Source: a virus
Lineage: Duplodnaviria; Caudoviricetes
DNA: 25,741 nt
IMG/VR virus record: IMGVR_UViG_3300033141_000111
Coordinates: 1 to 25,741 of that record
Direction: 5' to 3' (one strand)
Below the pieces are notes generated by a model. That model was not told the origin of the DNA. It saw nothing but the letters and a program-made list of their open reading frames with translations, and did not search any database. Made by a program: the position numbers and the translations under genes. Shown here piece by piece: positions 919 through 20,364 of the stretch; positions within the stretch are counted from its first letter, which is position 1, and the number at the start of each line of letters is the position of its first letter.

Positions 919-1138
919 AGAGTTAATCAAAGTAGCTAAAGAAGCTATTGTTGATTCAGATGATGATATATCAGCTGACAGACTTAAGAACGCTGCCGCT
1001 ACAAAAAAACTAGCTATATTTGATGCGTTTGAAATACTACAACGCATACAAGAAGAAGAGAATATGTTAAATGAAAAACCTAAAGAAGTTAAAAAAGAAA
1101 GAGCTTTTAAAGGTTTTGCTGAAGGTAGATCTAAATAA
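863..1138 (+). CDS. Helical protein, possible terminase small subunit
   Basis: 91-aa helical ORF directly upstream of TerL with TAATG coupling. It overlaps the GroES-like gene by 56 nt. Function is inferred from position only. Confidence 0.5.
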   Translation: MDIKKTKKSIIQAGQKAVEELIKVAKEAIVDSDDDISADRLKNAAATKKLAIFDAFEILQRIQEEENMLNEKPKEVKKERAFKGFAEGRSK

Positions 1139-3357
1139 TGTATACTCAAGATCTTTATAAAGTTTTAGATGATTATATAAAACCACATATAATCAAAAAA
1201 AACAATAGATATAAAAAATGGAAATATGGTTATAACAAAGAGCATGATGTAGTTGTTATAAGTAAGACTGGTCAAATAGGTGAGATATATGAAATACAAA
1301 ATTTAAAAATAGCTCTACCAAAACAACCAAAAGACGTACATAAGTTTAAGTCTAATACTTGGGAGCAAACCCCTATACCTGTTGAATTAAAGAAAATAAA
1401 AACGATATTTGATTGGGAGAGATACCCTGTTGATTTCAAGGAGAAATGGTATGATTACATTGATAAAGAATTTACTCGCAGAGACGAAGGCTTTTGGTTC
1501 TATAATAAAGGTGTGGCTACTTACATTAGTGGTACTCATTTTATGTACTTGCAGTGGTCCAAAATTGATGTTGGGAAGCCAGACTATAGGGAAGCAAACA
1601 GATTATTCTTTATCTTTTGGGAAGCTTGCAAGGCAGATCCACGATCCTATGGGATGTGCTACCTTAAGAACAGGCGTTCCGGGTTTTCTTTCATGGCCTC
1701 TGGAGAGGTGGTCAACATGGCAACCATATCAAGTGACTCCAGGTATGGTATACTTTCAAAGTCCGGTCCTGATGCAAAGACGATGTTCACAGACAAGGTG
1801 GTTCCAATTTCAGTTAATTATCCCTTCTTTTTCAAACCCATCCAGGACGGAATGGACCGTCCAAAGACCGAGCTTGCCTACCGTGTCCCCGCCAGTAAGT
1901 TCACCCGTAGAAAACTTACCACAACCCCTGACGAAACCCAACAGGAATTACAGGGACTTGACACGACCATCGATTGGAAGAACACCGGTGATAACTCCTA
2001 TGATGGAGAGAAACTCAAACTCCTCGTCCACGATGAATCGGGTAAATGGGAACGTCCGAACAACATCCTCAACAACTGGAGGGTTACGAAAACCACACTA
2101 CGATTAGGTAGTAGAATTATTGGAAAGTGTATGATGGGTAGTACCTGTAATGCGCTGGACAAAGGTGGTGATAACTTTAAAAAACTATATTATGACTCCG
2201 ACGTTACAAAACGAAACCGCAACGGACAGACTCGCTCGGGATTATATAGTTTGTTCATACCTATGGAATGGAACTACGAAGGATACATTGATTCTTATGG
2301 CGTACCTGTATTCGAAACACCAGAAACTGAAAGTGTTGGACCGCATGGAGATATAATAGATTTAGGTGTAATTGAATATTGGCAAAACGAAGTAAACGGT
2401 TTAAAAGGAGATCAAGATGCTTTAAATGAATTTTATAGACAATTTCCAAGAACTGAAGAACATGCTTTTAGAGATGAAGCAAAGCAATCTCTTTTTAATT
2501 TGACAAAAATTTATGAGCAAATTGATTTTAATGGAGATTTAAAACACAGTAATTTAGTTACTAAAGGTAGTTTCCAATGGAGAGATGGAATAAAAGATAC
2601 TAGCGTTATATTTGTTCCAAATAGCAATGGCAGATTTTTAGTAACTTGGGTTCCACCTGAAAACTTACAAAATCGTGTAATAGTAAAGAATGGGGTTAAA
2701 TATCCAGGTAATGAGGATTTAGGTGCTTTTGGTTGTGATAGTTATGATATATCTGGAACAGTGGATAGTAGAGGTTCTAATGGTTCGTTGCATGGATTAA
2801 CTAGTTTTAGTATGCTAGACGTTCCACCTAATCATTTCTTTTTAGAATATATAGCTAGACCTCAAACAGCAGAGATATTTTTTGAAGATGTACTTATGGC
2901 CTGTGTTTTTTATGGCATGCCTATATTAGCGGAAAATAATAAACCTAGATTGTTGTATCATTTTAAAAGAAGAGGATATAGAGGTTTTTCAATGAATAGA
3001 CCTGACAAAATATATAACAAGTTATCTGTTACTGAAAGAGATATTGGAGGTATACCAAACTCAAGTGAAGATATAAAACAAGCACACGCTGCTGCAATAG
3101 AAACTTATATAGAAAACTTTATAGGTTTACAAGATAAGGGTTATGGAGACATGTATTTTCAAAGAACTTTAAATGATTGGAGTAGATTTAACATAAACAA
3201 TAGAACAAAGCATGATGCGTCTATAAGTTCTGGACTTGCTTTAATGGCATGTAACAAAAATAGATACAGACCTGTACCAAAAAGACAAGTTATATCTTAT
3301 GATTTGGGTATAAAAAAATATGATAACACTGGTATTGTTTCGAAAATTATAAAATAA
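1138..3357 (+). CDS. terL: Terminase large subunit
   Basis: Walker-A-like LKNRRSGFS, Walker B LLVHDESGKW, coupling motif MMGST, RNase-H-like nuclease FGCDSYD and C-terminal KHDASISSG. Lies upstream of the portal gene. Confidence 0.93.
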   Translation: MYTQDLYKVLDDYIKPHIIKKNNRYKKWKYGYNKEHDVVVISKTGQIGEIYEIQNLKIALPKQPKDVHKFKSNTWEQTPIPVELKKIKTIFDWERYPVDFKEKWYDYIDKEFTRRDEGFWFYNKGVATYISGTHFMYLQWSKIDVGKPDYREANRLFFIFWEACKADPRSYGMCYLKNRRSGFSFMASGEVVNMATISSDSRYGILSKSGPDAKTMFTDKVVPISVNYPFFFKPIQDGMDRPKTELAYRVPASKFTRRKLTTTPDETQQELQGLDTTIDWKNTGDNSYDGEKLKLLVHDESGKWERPNNILNNWRVTKTTLRLGSRIIGKCMMGSTCNALDKGGDNFKKLYYDSDVTKRNRNGQTRSGLYSLFIPMEWNYEGYIDSYGVPVFETPETESVGPHGDIIDLGVIEYWQNEVNGLKGDQDALNEFYRQFPRTEEHAFRDEAKQSLFNLTKIYEQIDFNGDLKHSNLVTKGSFQWRDGIKDTSVIFVPNSNGRFLVTWVPPENLQNRVIVKNGVKYPGNEDLGAFGCDSYDISGTVDSRGSNGSLHGLTSFSMLDVPPNHFFLEYIARPQTAEIFFEDVLMACVFYGMPILAENNKPRLLYHFKRRGYRGFSMNRPDKIYNKLSVTERDIGGIPNSSEDIKQAHAAAIETYIENFIGLQDKGYGDMYFQRTLNDWSRFNINNRTKHDASISSGLALMACNKNRYRPVPKRQVISYDLGIKKYDNTGIVSKIIK
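1451..2107 (+). CDS. Overprinted +1-frame gene inside terL: putative lipoprotein or membrane-anchored protein (218 aa)
   Basis: The +1 frame is stop-free from 1400 to 2104. ATG 1451 follows AAGGAG with a 7-nt spacer. The protein has K-VWLLTLVVLIL-CTC-SG (hydrophobic helix plus Cys) and a Pro/Ser/Thr/Arg-rich C-terminus. It coincides with the GC and codon anomaly in terL. Confidence 0.75.
   Translation: MITLIKNLLAETKAFGSIIKVWLLTLVVLILCTCSGPKLMLGSQTIGKQTDYSLSFGKLARQIHDPMGCATLRTGVPGFLSWPLERWSTWQPYQVTPGMVYFQSPVLMQRRCSQTRWFQFQLIIPSFSNPSRTEWTVQRPSLPTVSPPVSSPVENLPQPLTKPNRNYRDLTRPSIGRTPVITPMMERNSNSSSTMNRVNGNVRTTSSTTGGLRKPHYD
2192..2356 (+). CDS. Second overprinted +1-frame small ORF inside terL (54 aa; 68 aa if started at 2150)
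   Basis: The +1 frame is open 2135-2356. ATG 2192 has the leader AAAAAACTATATT, like the TATATT-ATG leaders of genes 5722 and 8520. C-rich terL codons persist here. Confidence 0.4.
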   Translation: MTPTLQNETATDRLARDYIVCSYLWNGTTKDTLILMAYLYSKHQKLKVLDRMEI

Positions 3358-5112
3358 ATGAATATAAATTATAATACTAATAGCGCTTTTCCCAATCAGG
3401 TGGTACCTTTGGAGGAAAAATTAAGTATGAAGTATGGTAGTCAGGTTGCTGATGCTATACAATCAGAATGGTTTGCGCAAGGTAGAACTAATGGAAATAG
3501 GTATTTAACAACCTTTAACAATTATCACACTCGTAGATTATATGCTAGAGGTGAACAATCAACTCAAAAATATAAAGATGAATTATCTATAAATGGTGAT
3601 TTATCTTATTTAAACTTAGATTGGAAACCAGTGCCTATATTATCTAAATTTGTAGATATACTTACTAATGGTATTTCTAATAAAGATTATGATATAAAAG
3701 CTTATGCTAATGATCCTATGTCTGTTAAAAAGAGAACAGACTACGCTACTAGACTAGCTATGGATATGTATGGTCAAGATATTATAGAAGAAGTAAAAGC
3801 TACTACAGGACAAGATATATCACAAACAAATATACCAGCAGTTGATCTTCCTAAAACAATGGAAGAAATGGAACTTCATTTACAACTATCTTATAAACAA
3901 TCAATTGAGATAGCTGAAGAAGAAGCAATAACACAAACGTTAGATAAAAATAAATACGATTTACTTAAACGTAGGTTAAATTATGATCTAGTTACATTAG
4001 GTATTGCAGCTGCAAAAACAAATTTCAATACAGCTGAAGGTATAACTTTAGATTATGTTGATCCTGCTTATATGATTTATTCATATACAGAAGATCCTAA
4101 TTTTGAAGATATATATTATGTTGGAGAGGTTAAAGCTGTTACTATTCCAGAAATAAAACAACAATTTCCAAACATATCTGATGACGCGTTAGAAAAAATT
4201 CAAAAGTCTTATAGTAATAATAATTATATTTACGGTTGGGGTGCTTACGATGAAAACACTGTTCAAGTTTTATATTTTGAATATAAGACTTATATGGATC
4301 AAGTATTTAAAATAAAACATACAGATCAAGGTTTAGAAAAAGCATTAGAAAAACCAGATACTTTTAATCCACCAGAAAGTGATAATTTTAATAAAGTTTC
4401 AAGAAGTGTAGAGGTTTTATTTGAGGGTGTAAAAGTGTTAGGAACAGATATGATGCTTAGCTGGAAAATGGCTGAGAACATGACTAGGCCATTAGCTGAT
4501 ACAACTAAAGTAGAAATGAATTATGCTATTTGTGCACCTCGTATGTATAAAGGTAGAATAGAATCTATTGTTAGTAAAACTATAGGTTTTGCTGATATGA
4601 TACAATTAACTCATTTAAAACTACAACAGGTTATAGCTAGAATGGTTCCTGATGGTGTATTCTTAGACATGGATGGGTTAGCGGAAGTTGATTTAGGTAA
4701 TGGAACTAATTATAATCCAGCTGAAGCATTAAACATGTATTTTCAAACTGGTTCTGTAGTTGGTAGATCACTTACTCAAGATGGTACTATGAACGCTGGT
4801 AAAGTACCTGTTCAAGAATTATCCACCTCTTCAGGTCAAGCTAAAATAGGTTCTTTAATAAATACCTATAATTACTACGTACAAATGATACGGGATGTAA
4901 CAGGATTAAACGAAGCTAGAGATGGTAGTTTACCAGATAGAGATACTTTGGTTGGTTTACAAAAAATTGCAGCTCAACAGTCTAATATAGCGACTAAGCA
5001 TATTAACAATGCTAGTTTATATTTAACGTTAAGATTATGCGAGAATATATCTAAAAAATTAGTTGATGTTCTTAATTTTCCATTAACAGCTATGATTTTG
5101 GAATATTCTTAG
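3358..5112 (+). CDS. Portal protein, N-terminal part (reading frame broken near 5090)
   Basis: Abuts terL (TAAATG). Portal-like content: LNLDWKPVPILSKFVD, IRDVTGLNEARDGS. The last residues MILEYS* look out of frame. Confidence 0.85.
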   Translation: MNINYNTNSAFPNQVVPLEEKLSMKYGSQVADAIQSEWFAQGRTNGNRYLTTFNNYHTRRLYARGEQSTQKYKDELSINGDLSYLNLDWKPVPILSKFVDILTNGISNKDYDIKAYANDPMSVKKRTDYATRLAMDMYGQDIIEEVKATTGQDISQTNIPAVDLPKTMEEMELHLQLSYKQSIEIAEEEAITQTLDKNKYDLLKRRLNYDLVTLGIAAAKTNFNTAEGITLDYVDPAYMIYSYTEDPNFEDIYYVGEVKAVTIPEIKQQFPNISDDALEKIQKSYSNNNYIYGWGAYDENTVQVLYFEYKTYMDQVFKIKHTDQGLEKALEKPDTFNPPESDNFNKVSRSVEVLFEGVKVLGTDMMLSWKMAENMTRPLADTTKVEMNYAICAPRMYKGRIESIVSKTIGFADMIQLTHLKLQQVIARMVPDGVFLDMDGLAEVDLGNGTNYNPAEALNMYFQTGSVVGRSLTQDGTMNAGKVPVQELSTSSGQAKIGSLINTYNYYVQMIRDVTGLNEARDGSLPDRDTLVGLQKIAAQQSNIATKHINNASLYLTLRLCENISKKLVDVLNFPLTAMILEYS

Positions 5113-5696
5113 ATCTTGAACCAGATGAAGAAGAAAAAGCTCAACTAGAACAAAACATCCAAGTTGCATTGCAATCAGGTGGTATTGATTTAGAAGACGC
5201 TATTGATCTTAGACAAATACGCAATTTAAAGTTAGCTAATCAAATGCTAAAACAAAAACGTAGATTAAAACAGGAAAGAGATCAAAAGGCTGCTCAAGCT
5301 AATATGCAGGCTCAAGCTCAAGCAAATGCAAAATTAGCAGAGCAAACAGCATTAGCTGAAACTCAAAAACAACAAGTTTTAGTTGATCAAAAAATGCAAT
5401 TAGAACAAGCCAAATCTCAATTTGAAATACAAAGAATGCAGGCTGAAGCTGAAATTAAACGACAGTTAATGGCTGAAGAGTTTAATTATAATGTTCAACT
5501 TGCTAAAGAAAAATTCTCTAGTGAAGGAAATAAAGAGAAAGAAATAGAAGATAGAAAAGATAAAAGAGCTAGAATAATAGGGACTCAACAGTCTCAAATG
5601 ATACAGCAGAGACAAAATGATGGAACACCTATCGATTTTGAATCTACTAATGATAGTTTAGGTGACTTTGGTTTAGAAGCCTTTGGTCCTAAATAA
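5091..5696 (+). CDS. Portal protein, C-terminal part (-1 frame continuation)
   Basis: Frame open from 5076 reads YDFGIFLDLEPDEEEKAQLEQNIQVALQSGGIDLEDAID... into a Q/A/E-rich coiled coil typical of podoviral portal barrels. There is no convincing independent start. Confidence 0.8.
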   Translation, partial: YDFGIFLDLEPDEEEKAQLEQNIQVALQSGGIDLEDAIDLRQIRNLKLANQMLKQKRRLKQERDQKAAQANMQAQAQANAKLAEQTALAETQKQQVLVDQKMQLEQAKSQFEIQRMQAEAEIKRQLMAEEFNYNVQLAKEKFSSEGNKEKEIEDRKDKRARIIGTQQSQMIQQRQNDGTPIDFESTNDSLGDFGLEAFGPK

Positions 5697-18811: not shown

Positions 18812-19129
18812 ATGGGATATAGAATACCACCACCAGACTTTGTATTACCGCCTATGCAGATAAACGTTGCCGCAGAAATGGGTAGAACATTTGCTGCAGG
18901 TATAGACAAAATAGCGGCTTACAATAGAGAGCAAAAAGAAAAAGCTAAGAAGCTTCAAGATACTCAAAACGCTTTTAAGAATCAATTAATATTACAGCAA
19001 AATGAATTAAAGAATAGTTATTTTAAATCATTAGATAAAGCTGGTATAAATGATGATCCTGAAAAAGAAAATGAATTGTTTGATGTCAAATTGTTACTGA
19101 TTTTAAATCTTATTCTGAAAGTAGTTTAA
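18812..19129 (+). CDS. Internal virion or ejection protein, N-terminal part (frame break near 19085)
   Basis: Ejection-protein-like N-terminus with coiled coil. The tail VKLLLILNLILKVV* looks out of frame. Confidence 0.6.
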   Translation: MGYRIPPPDFVLPPMQINVAAEMGRTFAAGIDKIAAYNREQKEKAKKLQDTQNAFKNQLILQQNELKNSYFKSLDKAGINDDPEKENELFDVKLLLILNLILKVV

Positions 19130-20364
19130 CTCAAATGGGTGGGGTGTTAGCTGATTCAGAGCTTGTTCTTAATAATGATTACGTAGTAGTAGGAGATCCT
19201 ATGAATGGTGAGCAAATAAGCAACACGCTTGCATTACAAAATATAAATGGTGTTAACGCTAAAACATTTGATCCTAATGCTATAACAAGTAGAAAACTAA
19301 CTACTAAAGGCAATCAAAACGTGGTTACTTCTACTGTTAAAATACCTGTAAATTCTAATTATTTTAAAAAGGTAAATAAAGACGGAGGAGGAGATGGCGC
19401 AAATATAATACTACAAAATGGTGTAGACGCTGGAATTATTAAAACAGAAAATATAGATGGTAAGGATTACTATGTATTTAAAAGTGATATAAATGTTTCT
19501 AACTATTCTACTAAAGGTGGAATGGATTTAGTACAAGAAAAATTACCTACATTAAAATCTGATGACACGTTGACTGAATTAGGGTATTTACAATCTGATG
19601 GCGCATTTGCTAAAAGTTACGTTTCAAAAGATGAAGTTATAACTCAAGAAATTGAAAAAGATTTAGATGGTAATTCTACTGGATATAAAAAACAAGTAGG
19701 CTATAAGATTATAGACGTTGGATCTATGGTTGAAAATAAAGCTTATATAGACATGTTAAATGTTGAGTATGGTAGTGTTTTTAAAGATACGTCTAGATCA
19801 GAAGCTCAAAGACAACAGTATTTAGTTGATATAGGTATACCCATGAATCTTAAATCATTCAATAAGTTAACTGAAGCAGAAAGACAGCAAACCGTTACCG
19901 CGGCTATAGAAAGAAAAATGTGGACAGGTTATTTTCCTGCTAAATATAAATCATCAGGTAGACTACCTCAACAAGTTCAAGTGAAATTAGATGAATCTCC
20001 AGAAGGTGTGGCATTACTAAAGCAATTAAATGATATAGGTTATAAAAACCCTTCAACAGGAAAACTTTATAAACAAGGTGACTATGCTTATGTAATTAGA
20101 GAAGAGCAAAGCAGATCTATATCTGAGGATTCTACTGAAAGAATAGATGCTTACTCTGCTTTCTTGAAAAAATCAGATGAACAAATATTGAGTGACTTAG
20201 CAAGTATTCCTTTGTCAGTTTCTAATAGAGGAAGTTTTTACGCTAGAGATGGTAAAATATATTTGAACAAAGGTGGTGATGATCGTACAAACGATAAAGT
20301 AATTCCAATGAACATGTTTAGAGATGCTTTAACAACAGCTAGCTCTACAGAAAGAAATAAATAA
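19084..20364 (+). CDS. Internal virion or ejection protein, C-terminal part (-1 frame continuation; track start 19135)
   Basis: Frame opens at 19084 (CQIVTDFKSYSESSLTQMGG...) with normal codon usage upstream of the ATG at 19135. Confidence 0.6.
   Translation, partial: CQIVTDFKSYSESSLTQMGGVLADSELVLNNDYVVVGDPMNGEQISNTLALQNINGVNAKTFDPNAITSRKLTTKGNQNVVTSTVKIPVNSNYFKKVNKDGGGDGANIILQNGVDAGIIKTENIDGKDYYVFKSDINVSNYSTKGGMDLVQEKLPTLKSDDTLTELGYLQSDGAFAKSYVSKDEVITQEIEKDLDGNSTGYKKQVGYKIIDVGSMVENKAYIDMLNVEYGSVFKDTSRSEAQRQQYLVDIGIPMNLKSFNKLTEAERQQTVTAAIERKMWTGYFPAKYKSSGRLPQQVQVKLDESPEGVALLKQLNDIGYKNPSTGKLYKQGDYAYVIREEQSRSISEDSTERIDAYSAFLKKSDEQILSDLASIPLSVSNRGSFYARDGKIYLNKGGDDRTNDKVIPMNMFRDALTTASSTERNK

Follow-up and report, generated by a model that had tools for sequence, protein, structure and literature searches.

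A virus contig of 25,741 nucleotides (Duplodnaviria, Caudoviricetes; IMG/VR record IMGVR_UViG_3300033141_000111, positions 1 to 25,741, termed here, at its full length, the window) carries within the gene for its terminase large subunit (terL) a second gene that is read in the +1 frame, that runs from 1451 to 2107 on the plus strand, and that encodes 218 amino acids plus a stop. Patterns of codon choice among related terL genes argue, almost to the point of certainty, that this is a real overprinted gene kept open by selection, and indicate that what selection acts upon is the protein product. Export is the best-supported conserved feature that these patterns suggest for that product, and passage through the Sec pathway can be predicted with considerable confidence; a role at lysis is proposed tentatively.

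A stop-free frame within terL

The terL gene (positions 1138..3357, plus strand, as are the parts of the overprinted gene and the TerL motifs given below) encodes 739 amino acids in what is the ancestral frame; it matches PHROG 6681 (E=2e-159) and is flanked by a gene of 91 codons and by the portal gene. Its +1 frame, bounded by stops at 1397 and 2105, contains no stop for 235 codons (1400..2104), just as an initial annotation, made from the letters of the window, had described. The 218-residue product starting from ATG 1451 (the likely start, with TTG 1460 as an alternative), the codon TGC at 1550-1552 for Cys34, and the GC counts that the annotation gave (33/60 at 1861-1920, against 11/60 at 1141-1200 and 20/60 at 2881-2940) are likewise exact. 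GC content at the third codon positions of terL (GC3) is 0.50 inside the open stretch vs 0.19 outside.

That so long a frame should open by chance had been judged very unlikely, on a rough estimate of one +1 stop every ten codons elsewhere, and both statements hold. In the 11 other genes of the window a +1 stop occurs every 8.7-13.8 codons, and the longest +1 frame spans 31-62 codons. When the TerL protein was held fixed and its codons were redrawn (5000 runs per codon-usage model), the usage of the window's other genes gave 13.0 expected +1 stops (minimum 5) and a longest +1 frame of 55 codons on average and 137 at most; the overall usage of terL gave 10.6 expected stops and not one stop-free run in 5000; and the usage found inside the open stretch itself left only 0.24% of runs stop-free. 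Over the same stretch no antisense open reading frame was found, RNA structure predictions showed no sign of folding (z -0.5 to +1.4), and Rfam gave no match; scans for sigma-70 promoters and for terminators returned matches no more frequent than chance. A Shine-Dalgarno-like AAGGAG at 1438-1443 was considered as the ribosome site and rejected, as it is not conserved among homologues.

Homologues and their distribution

Five scans of viral sequences and one of genomes yielded 416 usable loci and, once partial and duplicate entries were dropped, 340 distinct terL genes (an earlier set of 300 loci had yielded 235, of which 232 were covered in full). The 340 comprise 128 open 'type A' copies (that is, open over terL codons 112-225 with the architecture of the window), 29 copies of a second type (termed here clade B), and 183 closed copies. 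Because 27 of the 29 clade B copies are open across codons 112-225 and the other two end at codon 221, the +1 frame is open to codon 221 or beyond in 157 of 340. Within the set of 232, the near group is sharply divided (97 copies have no +1 stop, 2 have one and 58 have 2-8) and none of the 75 distant copies is open; the frame is closed in five named distant phages as well. The alignment of homologues that the initial annotation had proposed as a check on the open frame, its helix and its Cys reveals a distinct open class located in a single clade.

In quick FastTree trees, of which the main one is based on the ATPase half of terL, all 157 open copies fall within one clade of 250 (support 0.96) that also holds 93 nested closed copies, with 90 closed outgroup copies lying outside; Dollo counting on this tree gives 22 losses. 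A single origin followed by many losses is the simplest reading. A tree of terL outside the overlap places a few open copies elsewhere, and these are terL chimeras (L448-L452, L341, L342, L363 and L401), in which the ATPase half resembles type A far more closely than does the nuclease half. The overlap region can, therefore, move between terL backgrounds, and the patchy distribution may in part be owed to recombination. The spread of the +1 gene is narrower than that of the ancestral terL frame, as is characteristic of overprinted genes.

No family in Pfam, PHROGs or NCBIfam matches the hidden product, the ESM Atlas returned no usable hit for either the type A or the clade B product, and tblastn against 50,697 phage records found no match. 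Two profile searches returned 253 proteins, every one of which matches terL genes in their +1 frame, with no stand-alone homologue among them (one search being limited to 64-385 amino acids). Four of these database proteins (P0209, P0217, P0186 and P0171) come from the +1 frame of remoter terL genes, at 33-42% identity to the nearest sampled locus, which suggests further variants or clades beyond the sampled set. Eleven longer database entries were examined; they include TerL/+1 fusions whose junctions differ and whose clusters have 1-2 members each, and these fusions are read as indel errors. Programmed frameshifting from TerL was considered and rejected: the candidate site GGT TTT TGG varies, and a start of its own is present in every open type A copy. 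Also rejected as a type A gene is a +1 open reading frame of 68 codons at 2150-2356, just past the hidden gene; that stretch has few stop-prone sites, and its equivalent is open in 104 of the 183 closed relatives.

Selection on the +1 product

The most direct trace of selection is the avoidance of particular codons in a particular context. In 61 open copies, none of the 840 Ile, Leu or Val codons that lie within the frame and precede a purine has the form NTA (zero by the definition of open), as against 413 of 741 preceding a pyrimidine; outside the frame the counts are 1610/2623 and 941/1526, respectively. Because NTA codons are used normally before pyrimidines, there has been no general shift away from A. 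Clade B repeats the pattern (0/418 before a purine vs 218/333 before a pyrimidine). Counts of this kind are not phylogenetically independent; the pattern nonetheless recurs across the tree, and in each lineage GC3 stays high only until that lineage's +1 stop is reached (near codon 255, 270, 293 or 321) and then drops.

Codon choice bears, moreover, on which residues the +1 frame encodes. At four-fold degenerate sites over the tail, T is depleted in open copies (from 0.39 to 0.10 for Thr and from 0.47 to 0.11 for Pro) whereas A is largely kept (0.48 to 0.36 and 0.42 to 0.42, respectively), so that Leu is removed from the +1 product. Over the hydrophobic core of the leader the reverse holds: Thr131 of TerL is encoded by ACT, which supplies a +1 Leu, in 92 of 92 open copies vs 20 of 126 closed ones. 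That T is avoided in the tail but always chosen at Thr131 in the core means that GC pressure is not the cause. Mean hydropathy of the core is 2.94 in 97 open copies and 0.95 in 60 near closed ones, and that of the tail ranges from -0.2 to -1.2 in open and from +0.75 to -0.8 in closed copies. Start codons are retained as well: a start within terL codons 103-113 without a later stop is present in 128/128 open type A copies vs 43/93 nested closed ones. Its position varies (codons 105 to 112), and where there is a stop at codon 108, a start at codons 109-113 follows in 43/43 open vs 13/56 closed copies. The suppression of synonymous variation for which the initial annotation had suggested looking is seen over the signal peptide (codons 127-140), where synonymous diversity is 0.24 in open copies vs 0.51; the tail, which is taken up below, is another matter.

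Leader, lipobox and tail

The leader of the product begins with an n-region (residues 1-22; 1451..1516) that has three Lys and one Glu and that is not selected for hydrophobicity. It is followed by the hydrophobic core (residues 23-31, terL codons 127-135; 1517..1543), which is supported by hydropathy, by the choice at Thr131 and by a helix in an AlphaFold model; this core is 9-11 residues long and is present in every open type A copy (128/128). A basic n-region and a hydrophobic core ahead of a Cys is the arrangement found in lipoproteins, and C32-T33-C34-S35-G36 (1544..1558) is the predicted lipidation or cleavage site. Within it C32 and G36 are forced by the Met-Tyr and Trp codons of TerL, and the only free choices in the leader are Thr33-Cys34-(Ser/Asn)35 and the Leu residues. 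These choices are made consistently: T33 (T137 in terL numbering) occurs in 94/97 open vs 22/60 near closed copies and C34 (C138) in 93/97 vs 21/60; a Thr-Cys pair occurs at one of two positions in 127/128 open type A vs 87/183 closed copies; and Cys138 is present in 119/128 type A copies even though Ser or Phe codons are available. Since TerL Tyr137 permits Thr as the sole small residue, Thr-Cys looks like the best lipobox available there. Of the lipobox-like LCT-C that had been pointed out from the window, then, C34 stands as a selected Cys and T33 and S35 as chosen residues, while C32 is forced by TerL and the consensus is missed. On balance, lipidation by Lgt and signal peptidase II (SPase II) at Cys34 is more likely than not despite the Thr at -1. 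In E. coli the residue at +2 governs lipoprotein sorting; here the residue that follows the Cys is Ser, Asn or Ala and never Asp.

The remainder (1559..2104) is, from the AlphaFold model and from its composition, predicted to be an exported, disordered and basic tail. The model consists of a single helix over residues 2-34 with no structure after it and no tail fold (predicted local distance difference test, pLDDT, 48; predicted template modelling score, pTM, 0.18). In the window the mature part has 185 residues, including 21 Lys plus Arg, 8 Asp plus Glu, 21 Pro, 22 Ser and 19 Thr. Its length ranges over 88-187 residues across type A (88-206 counting clade B), with ends from codon 221 to codon 327 and six main tail lengths, and its median net charge is +13 in type A and +19 in clade B. 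Tails of open copies are purged of hydrophobic residues and enriched in Arg, and yet their sequence itself is not conserved. No C-terminal transmembrane domain exceeds a hydropathy of 1.6 over 19 residues (0/128 type A, 0/29 clade B); median Pro is 5.5% in type A and 4.3% in clade B, and the longest Pro run is a single residue in 91/128. The tail has two Cys residues, C69 and C112, of the kind that o-spanins use for disulfide links in the periplasm; C112 is common to all closed relatives and C69 to most of them, and therefore both follow from Met codons of TerL. Similarly, the 'Trp-rich middle' reported earlier is there to be seen in the sequence, but much of it is either forced by TerL or variable among homologues. 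Four copies (L090, L348, L215 and L365) keep the full leader and C-T-C-S-G and end at codons 192-226, with a tail of about 55-90 residues.

Another placement of the signal peptide in clade B

The 29 copies of clade B, whose TerL is 66-71% identical to that of the window and which represent few independent lineages, have their signal peptide 16 codons further upstream than in type A. Its core lies at codons 112-119, where hydropathy is 2.83 (vs -0.07 in type A), and at codons 127-135, where hydropathy is 0.02, there is neither a core nor a C-T-C. The leader ends in G-S-C in 20/29 copies, with Ser at -1, Gly at -2 and Thr, Ile or Phe at -3, and in G-L-C-[AV]-[TM]-A-Q-Q in the other 9/29. The shift is visible in TerL itself, which reads F-M-C or F-M-R in 29/29 clade B copies and F-M-N in 89 closed relatives; F-M-N forces a TGA in the +1 frame. 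Two different signal peptides placed ahead of the same tail frame are the strongest sign that export is the selected trait. A further +1 frame in clade B starts at codon 341 and reaches codons 419-449 (78-110 codons; for example, L413:11037-11306); it is open in 29/29 copies and in which NTA codons number 0/247 before a purine vs 90/160 before a pyrimidine.

Comparison with known systems

The initial annotation knew of no overprinted gene inside a terminase gene. Phage T7 has two, genes 19.2 and 19.3, nested in the +1 frame of its terL at offsets of 646 and 1183 nucleotides (NC_001604). They share with the hidden gene both the frame and the gene overprinted; their products, however, have 85 and 57 amino acids and no signal-peptide-like leader on inspection, there is no sequence similarity, and the TerL lineage is unrelated. 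The tandem +1 frames of clade B resemble this T7 pair. Overprinting is known as well from phiX174, where gene E lies within gene D.

The suggestion that the product is spanin-like is not borne out by defining features: the gene lies neither in nor beside an i-spanin gene, a C-terminal transmembrane domain is present in 0/157 copies, and Pro content is low. Embedded o-spanins, such as lambda Rz1 in Rz and T7 18.7 in 18.5 (PMC6139136), are like the hidden gene in being out of frame, in having an unstructured, exported, lipoprotein-like product and in belonging to a late operon. The hidden gene differs from them in its host gene (TerL), in the length of its mature part (88-206 residues vs 40), in having a median Pro of about 5% without a conserved proline run, in its Thr-Cys lipobox, in that a dedicated i-spanin partner was not found, and in having been lost about 22 times; i-spanin adjacency and the conserved proline-rich region of the lambda family are both absent. 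The u-spanins of the T1 gp11 type, and genes of closed relatives resembling them (G005, G020, L234), share the N-terminal lipoprotein signal; such u-spanin-like genes occur in the same phage group and accompany the hidden gene in none of the examined loci, and the hidden product, unlike them, has neither a C-terminal transmembrane domain nor a beta-rich domain. The disruptin gp28 of phiKT is a cationic peptide able to replace spanins (10.1101/515445), and it resembles the hidden product in being cationic, in its proposed disruption of the outer membrane and in coming from a spanin-less phage. It is, however, a 56-residue amphipathic helix, whereas the hidden product, at 3-4 times that length, bears a signal peptide and shows no predicted tail helix. 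Judged from its sequence, therefore, the gene appears to lack the defining features of o-spanins, of u-spanins and of the gp28 disruptin alike.

A general parallel is with viral genes born de novo by overprinting (PMC8227390), with which the hidden gene shares a restricted spread, a bias toward disorder, weak constraint and an accessory character. Those cases are mainly from eukaryotic viruses; the present one belongs to a phage whose double-stranded DNA genome measures 60 kb, and differs in overlapping a conserved ATPase core, in having two signal-peptide placements and in its many losses. The available portion of PMC8776804, which annotates the lysis genes of related cultured families, mentions no such overlap, and no published description of this terL-embedded gene was found in the literature searched, from which subscription journals were mostly absent.

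Possible functions

The frame is very probably translated from the late terL message, which would also be read, at a low level, from ATG 1451. The leader would route the chain through Sec, as the two selected signal peptides imply; Cys34 would then likely be acylated, with sorting directing the product away from the inner membrane; and--the least certain step--the unfolded polycationic tail would weaken the outer membrane as holin and endolysin act, working by charge and composition and not by fold. The product is tentatively seen, then, as an exported, likely lipid-anchored, dispensable late helper that destabilizes the host outer membrane at lysis. A role that requires charge and solubility but no fold would explain why the length and sequence of the tail are free, and an accessory role would explain the repeated losses. 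The unannotated envelope protein of the initial annotation is retained to the extent that it appears to be exported, probably lipidated and maintained by selection; its spanin label fails, and its lysis or exclusion role can be put only conditionally.

Gene context favours lysis modestly over other roles. Where a locus offers 3 kb or more of sequence upstream of terL (3-10 kb examined), that flank contains a stand-alone gene combining a lipobox with a C-terminal transmembrane domain in 0/70 of the open, 5/41 of the nested closed and 13/62 of the outgroup cases (nominal p 0.006). Whole contigs add a u-spanin-like gene in G005 and an i/o-like pair in G002; in all, one or the other is present in 0/8 open and 3/8 closed large contigs. 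The window itself does not extend to the lysis genes of its phage.

A number of observations weigh against the proposed helper, the first being that this exclusion of spanins is weak: the nested closed cases with a u-spanin-like gene amount to about 3 independent lineages; in those cases the gene tracks the absence of a phrog_3427-like holin, which confounds the comparison, and a stand-alone lipobox gene occurs with such a holin in 0/36 of the closed loci that have it; 35/41 nested closed loci, as well as the near-complete closed contigs G019, G012:C28, G013:C66 and G014:C9, have neither the hidden gene nor a recognizable spanin; and in the open locus L192 a small lipoprotein gene adjoins the holin. 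Strict replacement of a lysis lipoprotein by the hidden gene was accordingly rejected, the exclusion being one-way as well as weak. Other observations concern the lipid anchor. The L-C-T-C of the window misses the lipobox consensus [LVI][ASTVI][GAS]C (PMC7857515, PMC6139136) through its Thr at -1, and G-S-C in clade B departs from it as well, at -2 and -3. A deviant lipobox (AWAC) is known (PMC6139136); of the roughly 24 plausible lipoboxes that a regular-expression screen, judged by eye, yielded from 400 kb of sequence in a Saprospiraceae bin, just one has Thr at -1. Cys138 is missing from 9/128 type A copies, and 9/29 clade B copies read G-L-C. Finally, synonymous diversity over the tail (codons 171-255) is higher in open copies (0.53-0.54) than in closed ones (0.43-0.45), so that suppression does not extend beyond the signal peptide, and a comparison of close pairs shows no reduction (among the copies counted as open there, a few have their first stop at codons 190-221, and two of these lack the helix).

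The lysis genes fall into recognizable arrangements. One cassette has a phrog_3427-like holin without a lipobox gene (L192 excepted); another has a different holin, an endolysin and either a u-spanin-like gene or an i/o-like pair; and many marine-type members have no recognizable spanin but, close to the holin, encode a number of small and very basic proteins. The only candidate with a transmembrane segment and a coiled-coil-like region lies far off, in open and closed phages alike. A recurring module follows the giant virion gene (L306:13861-15784, which is G001; also G003, G006, G012, G013, G015 and G019); it comprises an exported protein of 350-400 residues, a 94-residue transmembrane and coiled-coil-like protein and a small exported protein, and which is present in both open and closed phages.

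The alternative that survives best, though somewhat unlikely, is an exported or inner-membrane-anchored protein without obligatory lipidation (cleaved by SPase I or uncleaved) that serves some other envelope role, for instance in adjusting when lysis occurs or in using its basic tail to tether DNA or the packaging machinery. The non-canonical lipobox and 33-residue leader of type A fit such a protein, as do the enrichment of Arg in the tail, the N-G-Q or S-G-Q read by several type A copies that lack Cys138, and the A-Q-Q ending of nine clade B copies, which suits an SPase I site followed by Gln at +1 under the Bacteroidetes Q-rule (PMC5837995). It leaves unexplained, however, why Cys138 is so regularly chosen over Ser or Phe, why the Thr-Cys pair is nearly universal in type A, and why G-S-C prevails in clade B.

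A lipoprotein that blocks receptors or masks the surface, either for superinfection exclusion or for keeping progeny off debris, is unlikely; the model for it is Llp of phage T5, which reportedly acts on FhuA. The lipoprotein-like leader with its Ser, Asn or Ala at +2 agrees with this idea, and a patchy, fast-changing spread is typical of accessory host-interaction genes. Yet there is no fold and no conserved binding surface, the ends vary from codon 221 to codon 327, the gene is placed in a late packaging operon, and an acidic motif resembling an export signal occurs in 0/157 copies. Less likely still is that translation matters for a regulatory reason (ribosome traffic on the terL mRNA, or targeting of the message to the membrane) with an inert tail: conservation of the tail in composition only, a mean identity of 48% and repeated loss speak for this, but Leu is avoided and Ser, Thr, Pro and Arg are favoured as far as the stop of the lineage concerned, and the signal peptide with its Cys is present in two placements, both of which imply that the product matters. 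That there is no gene, the frame having been opened by chance, by an RNA structure or by a high-GC segment acquired through recombination, can be set aside as highly improbable, for, though recombination inside terL is real (as in the chimeras) and the tail has normal or high synonymous diversity, stop avoidance is context-specific, Thr codons are selected oppositely in core and tail, lost starts are rescued, the count of stops is two-peaked, and neither an RNA folding signal, an Rfam match nor an antisense frame was found.

A bolder form of the lysis proposal would make the gene the founder of a new class, namely a lipid-tethered disordered polycation that was born de novo in the terminase ATPase core, that replaces spanins, that has been given a new leader at a cost to TerL, and that has in one clade been joined by a second overprinted gene; this must be considered rather unlikely.

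TerL beneath the overlap

Two TerL motifs lie under the overlap: KNRRSGFS (1666..1689), which is taken here to be Walker A-like, and LLVHDESGK (2020..2046), presumably Walker B-like. The label of ATPase domain for this half of TerL follows from these presumed motifs together with the match to PHROG 6681. K177, R179, R180, G182 and F183 are invariant in 30 TerL proteins, and searches of PDB sequences found no solved TerL relative. The first motif has, within R-R-S-G-F-S, a Phe at a position where Walker A usually has Lys; F183 and K177 are invariant in those 30 proteins down to 42% identity.

The phage and its host

In the window the genes are ordered GroES-like, 91-residue gene, terL, portal and virion proteins. 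At a coverage of at least 80%, terL matches 87 annotated phage records. The closest cultured relatives are podoviruses of Flavobacteriia (Elemovirus, Baltivirus, Callevirus and Gundelvirus; TerL identity 30-44%), from which a host within the Bacteroidota may be inferred; one spring-water genome reaches 63% TerL identity. With an estimated 15,000 or so stretches in IMG/VR matching TerL patterns, the phage group is common, and it is widespread, uncultured and aquatic. DNA of the window was matched, as fragmented contigs, in four sequencing runs from four studies; in RNA runs at most 0.42 of its sequence words are present (0.05-0.07 in runs X16-X20).

The portal gene (3358-5112, 5169-5696) carries on in another frame past a break at about 5095, and the gene at 18812-20364 likewise changes frame at about 19110; both breaks are probably single-base assembly errors in the contig. 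One closed-frame relative with 64% TerL identity (L386:10001-12241) lies inside a 3.0-Mb Saprospiraceae contig and is possibly a prophage or a misjoin.

Conclusions

In this system the birth, remodelling and death of a gene can be traced in hundreds of natural copies, and their signatures--a single origin, some 22 losses, six main lengths of tail and two placements of the signal peptide--can be read from the codons of an essential enzyme gene. Walker motifs can evidently be overprinted with an exported protein of 200 codons while TerL changes little, and annotation overlooks such a gene. TerL is widely used as a marker gene, so that for this phage group its GC3 and the rates estimated from its codons are distorted. 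About 13% of genomes surveyed have no identifiable spanin (PMC6139136), and if the lysis reading is true, the hidden gene would suggest one way in which phages of Bacteroidota that have no spanin get through the outer membrane. Were it in addition the first of a new class, terL would be acting as a gene nursery in abundant aquatic phages of Bacteroidota.

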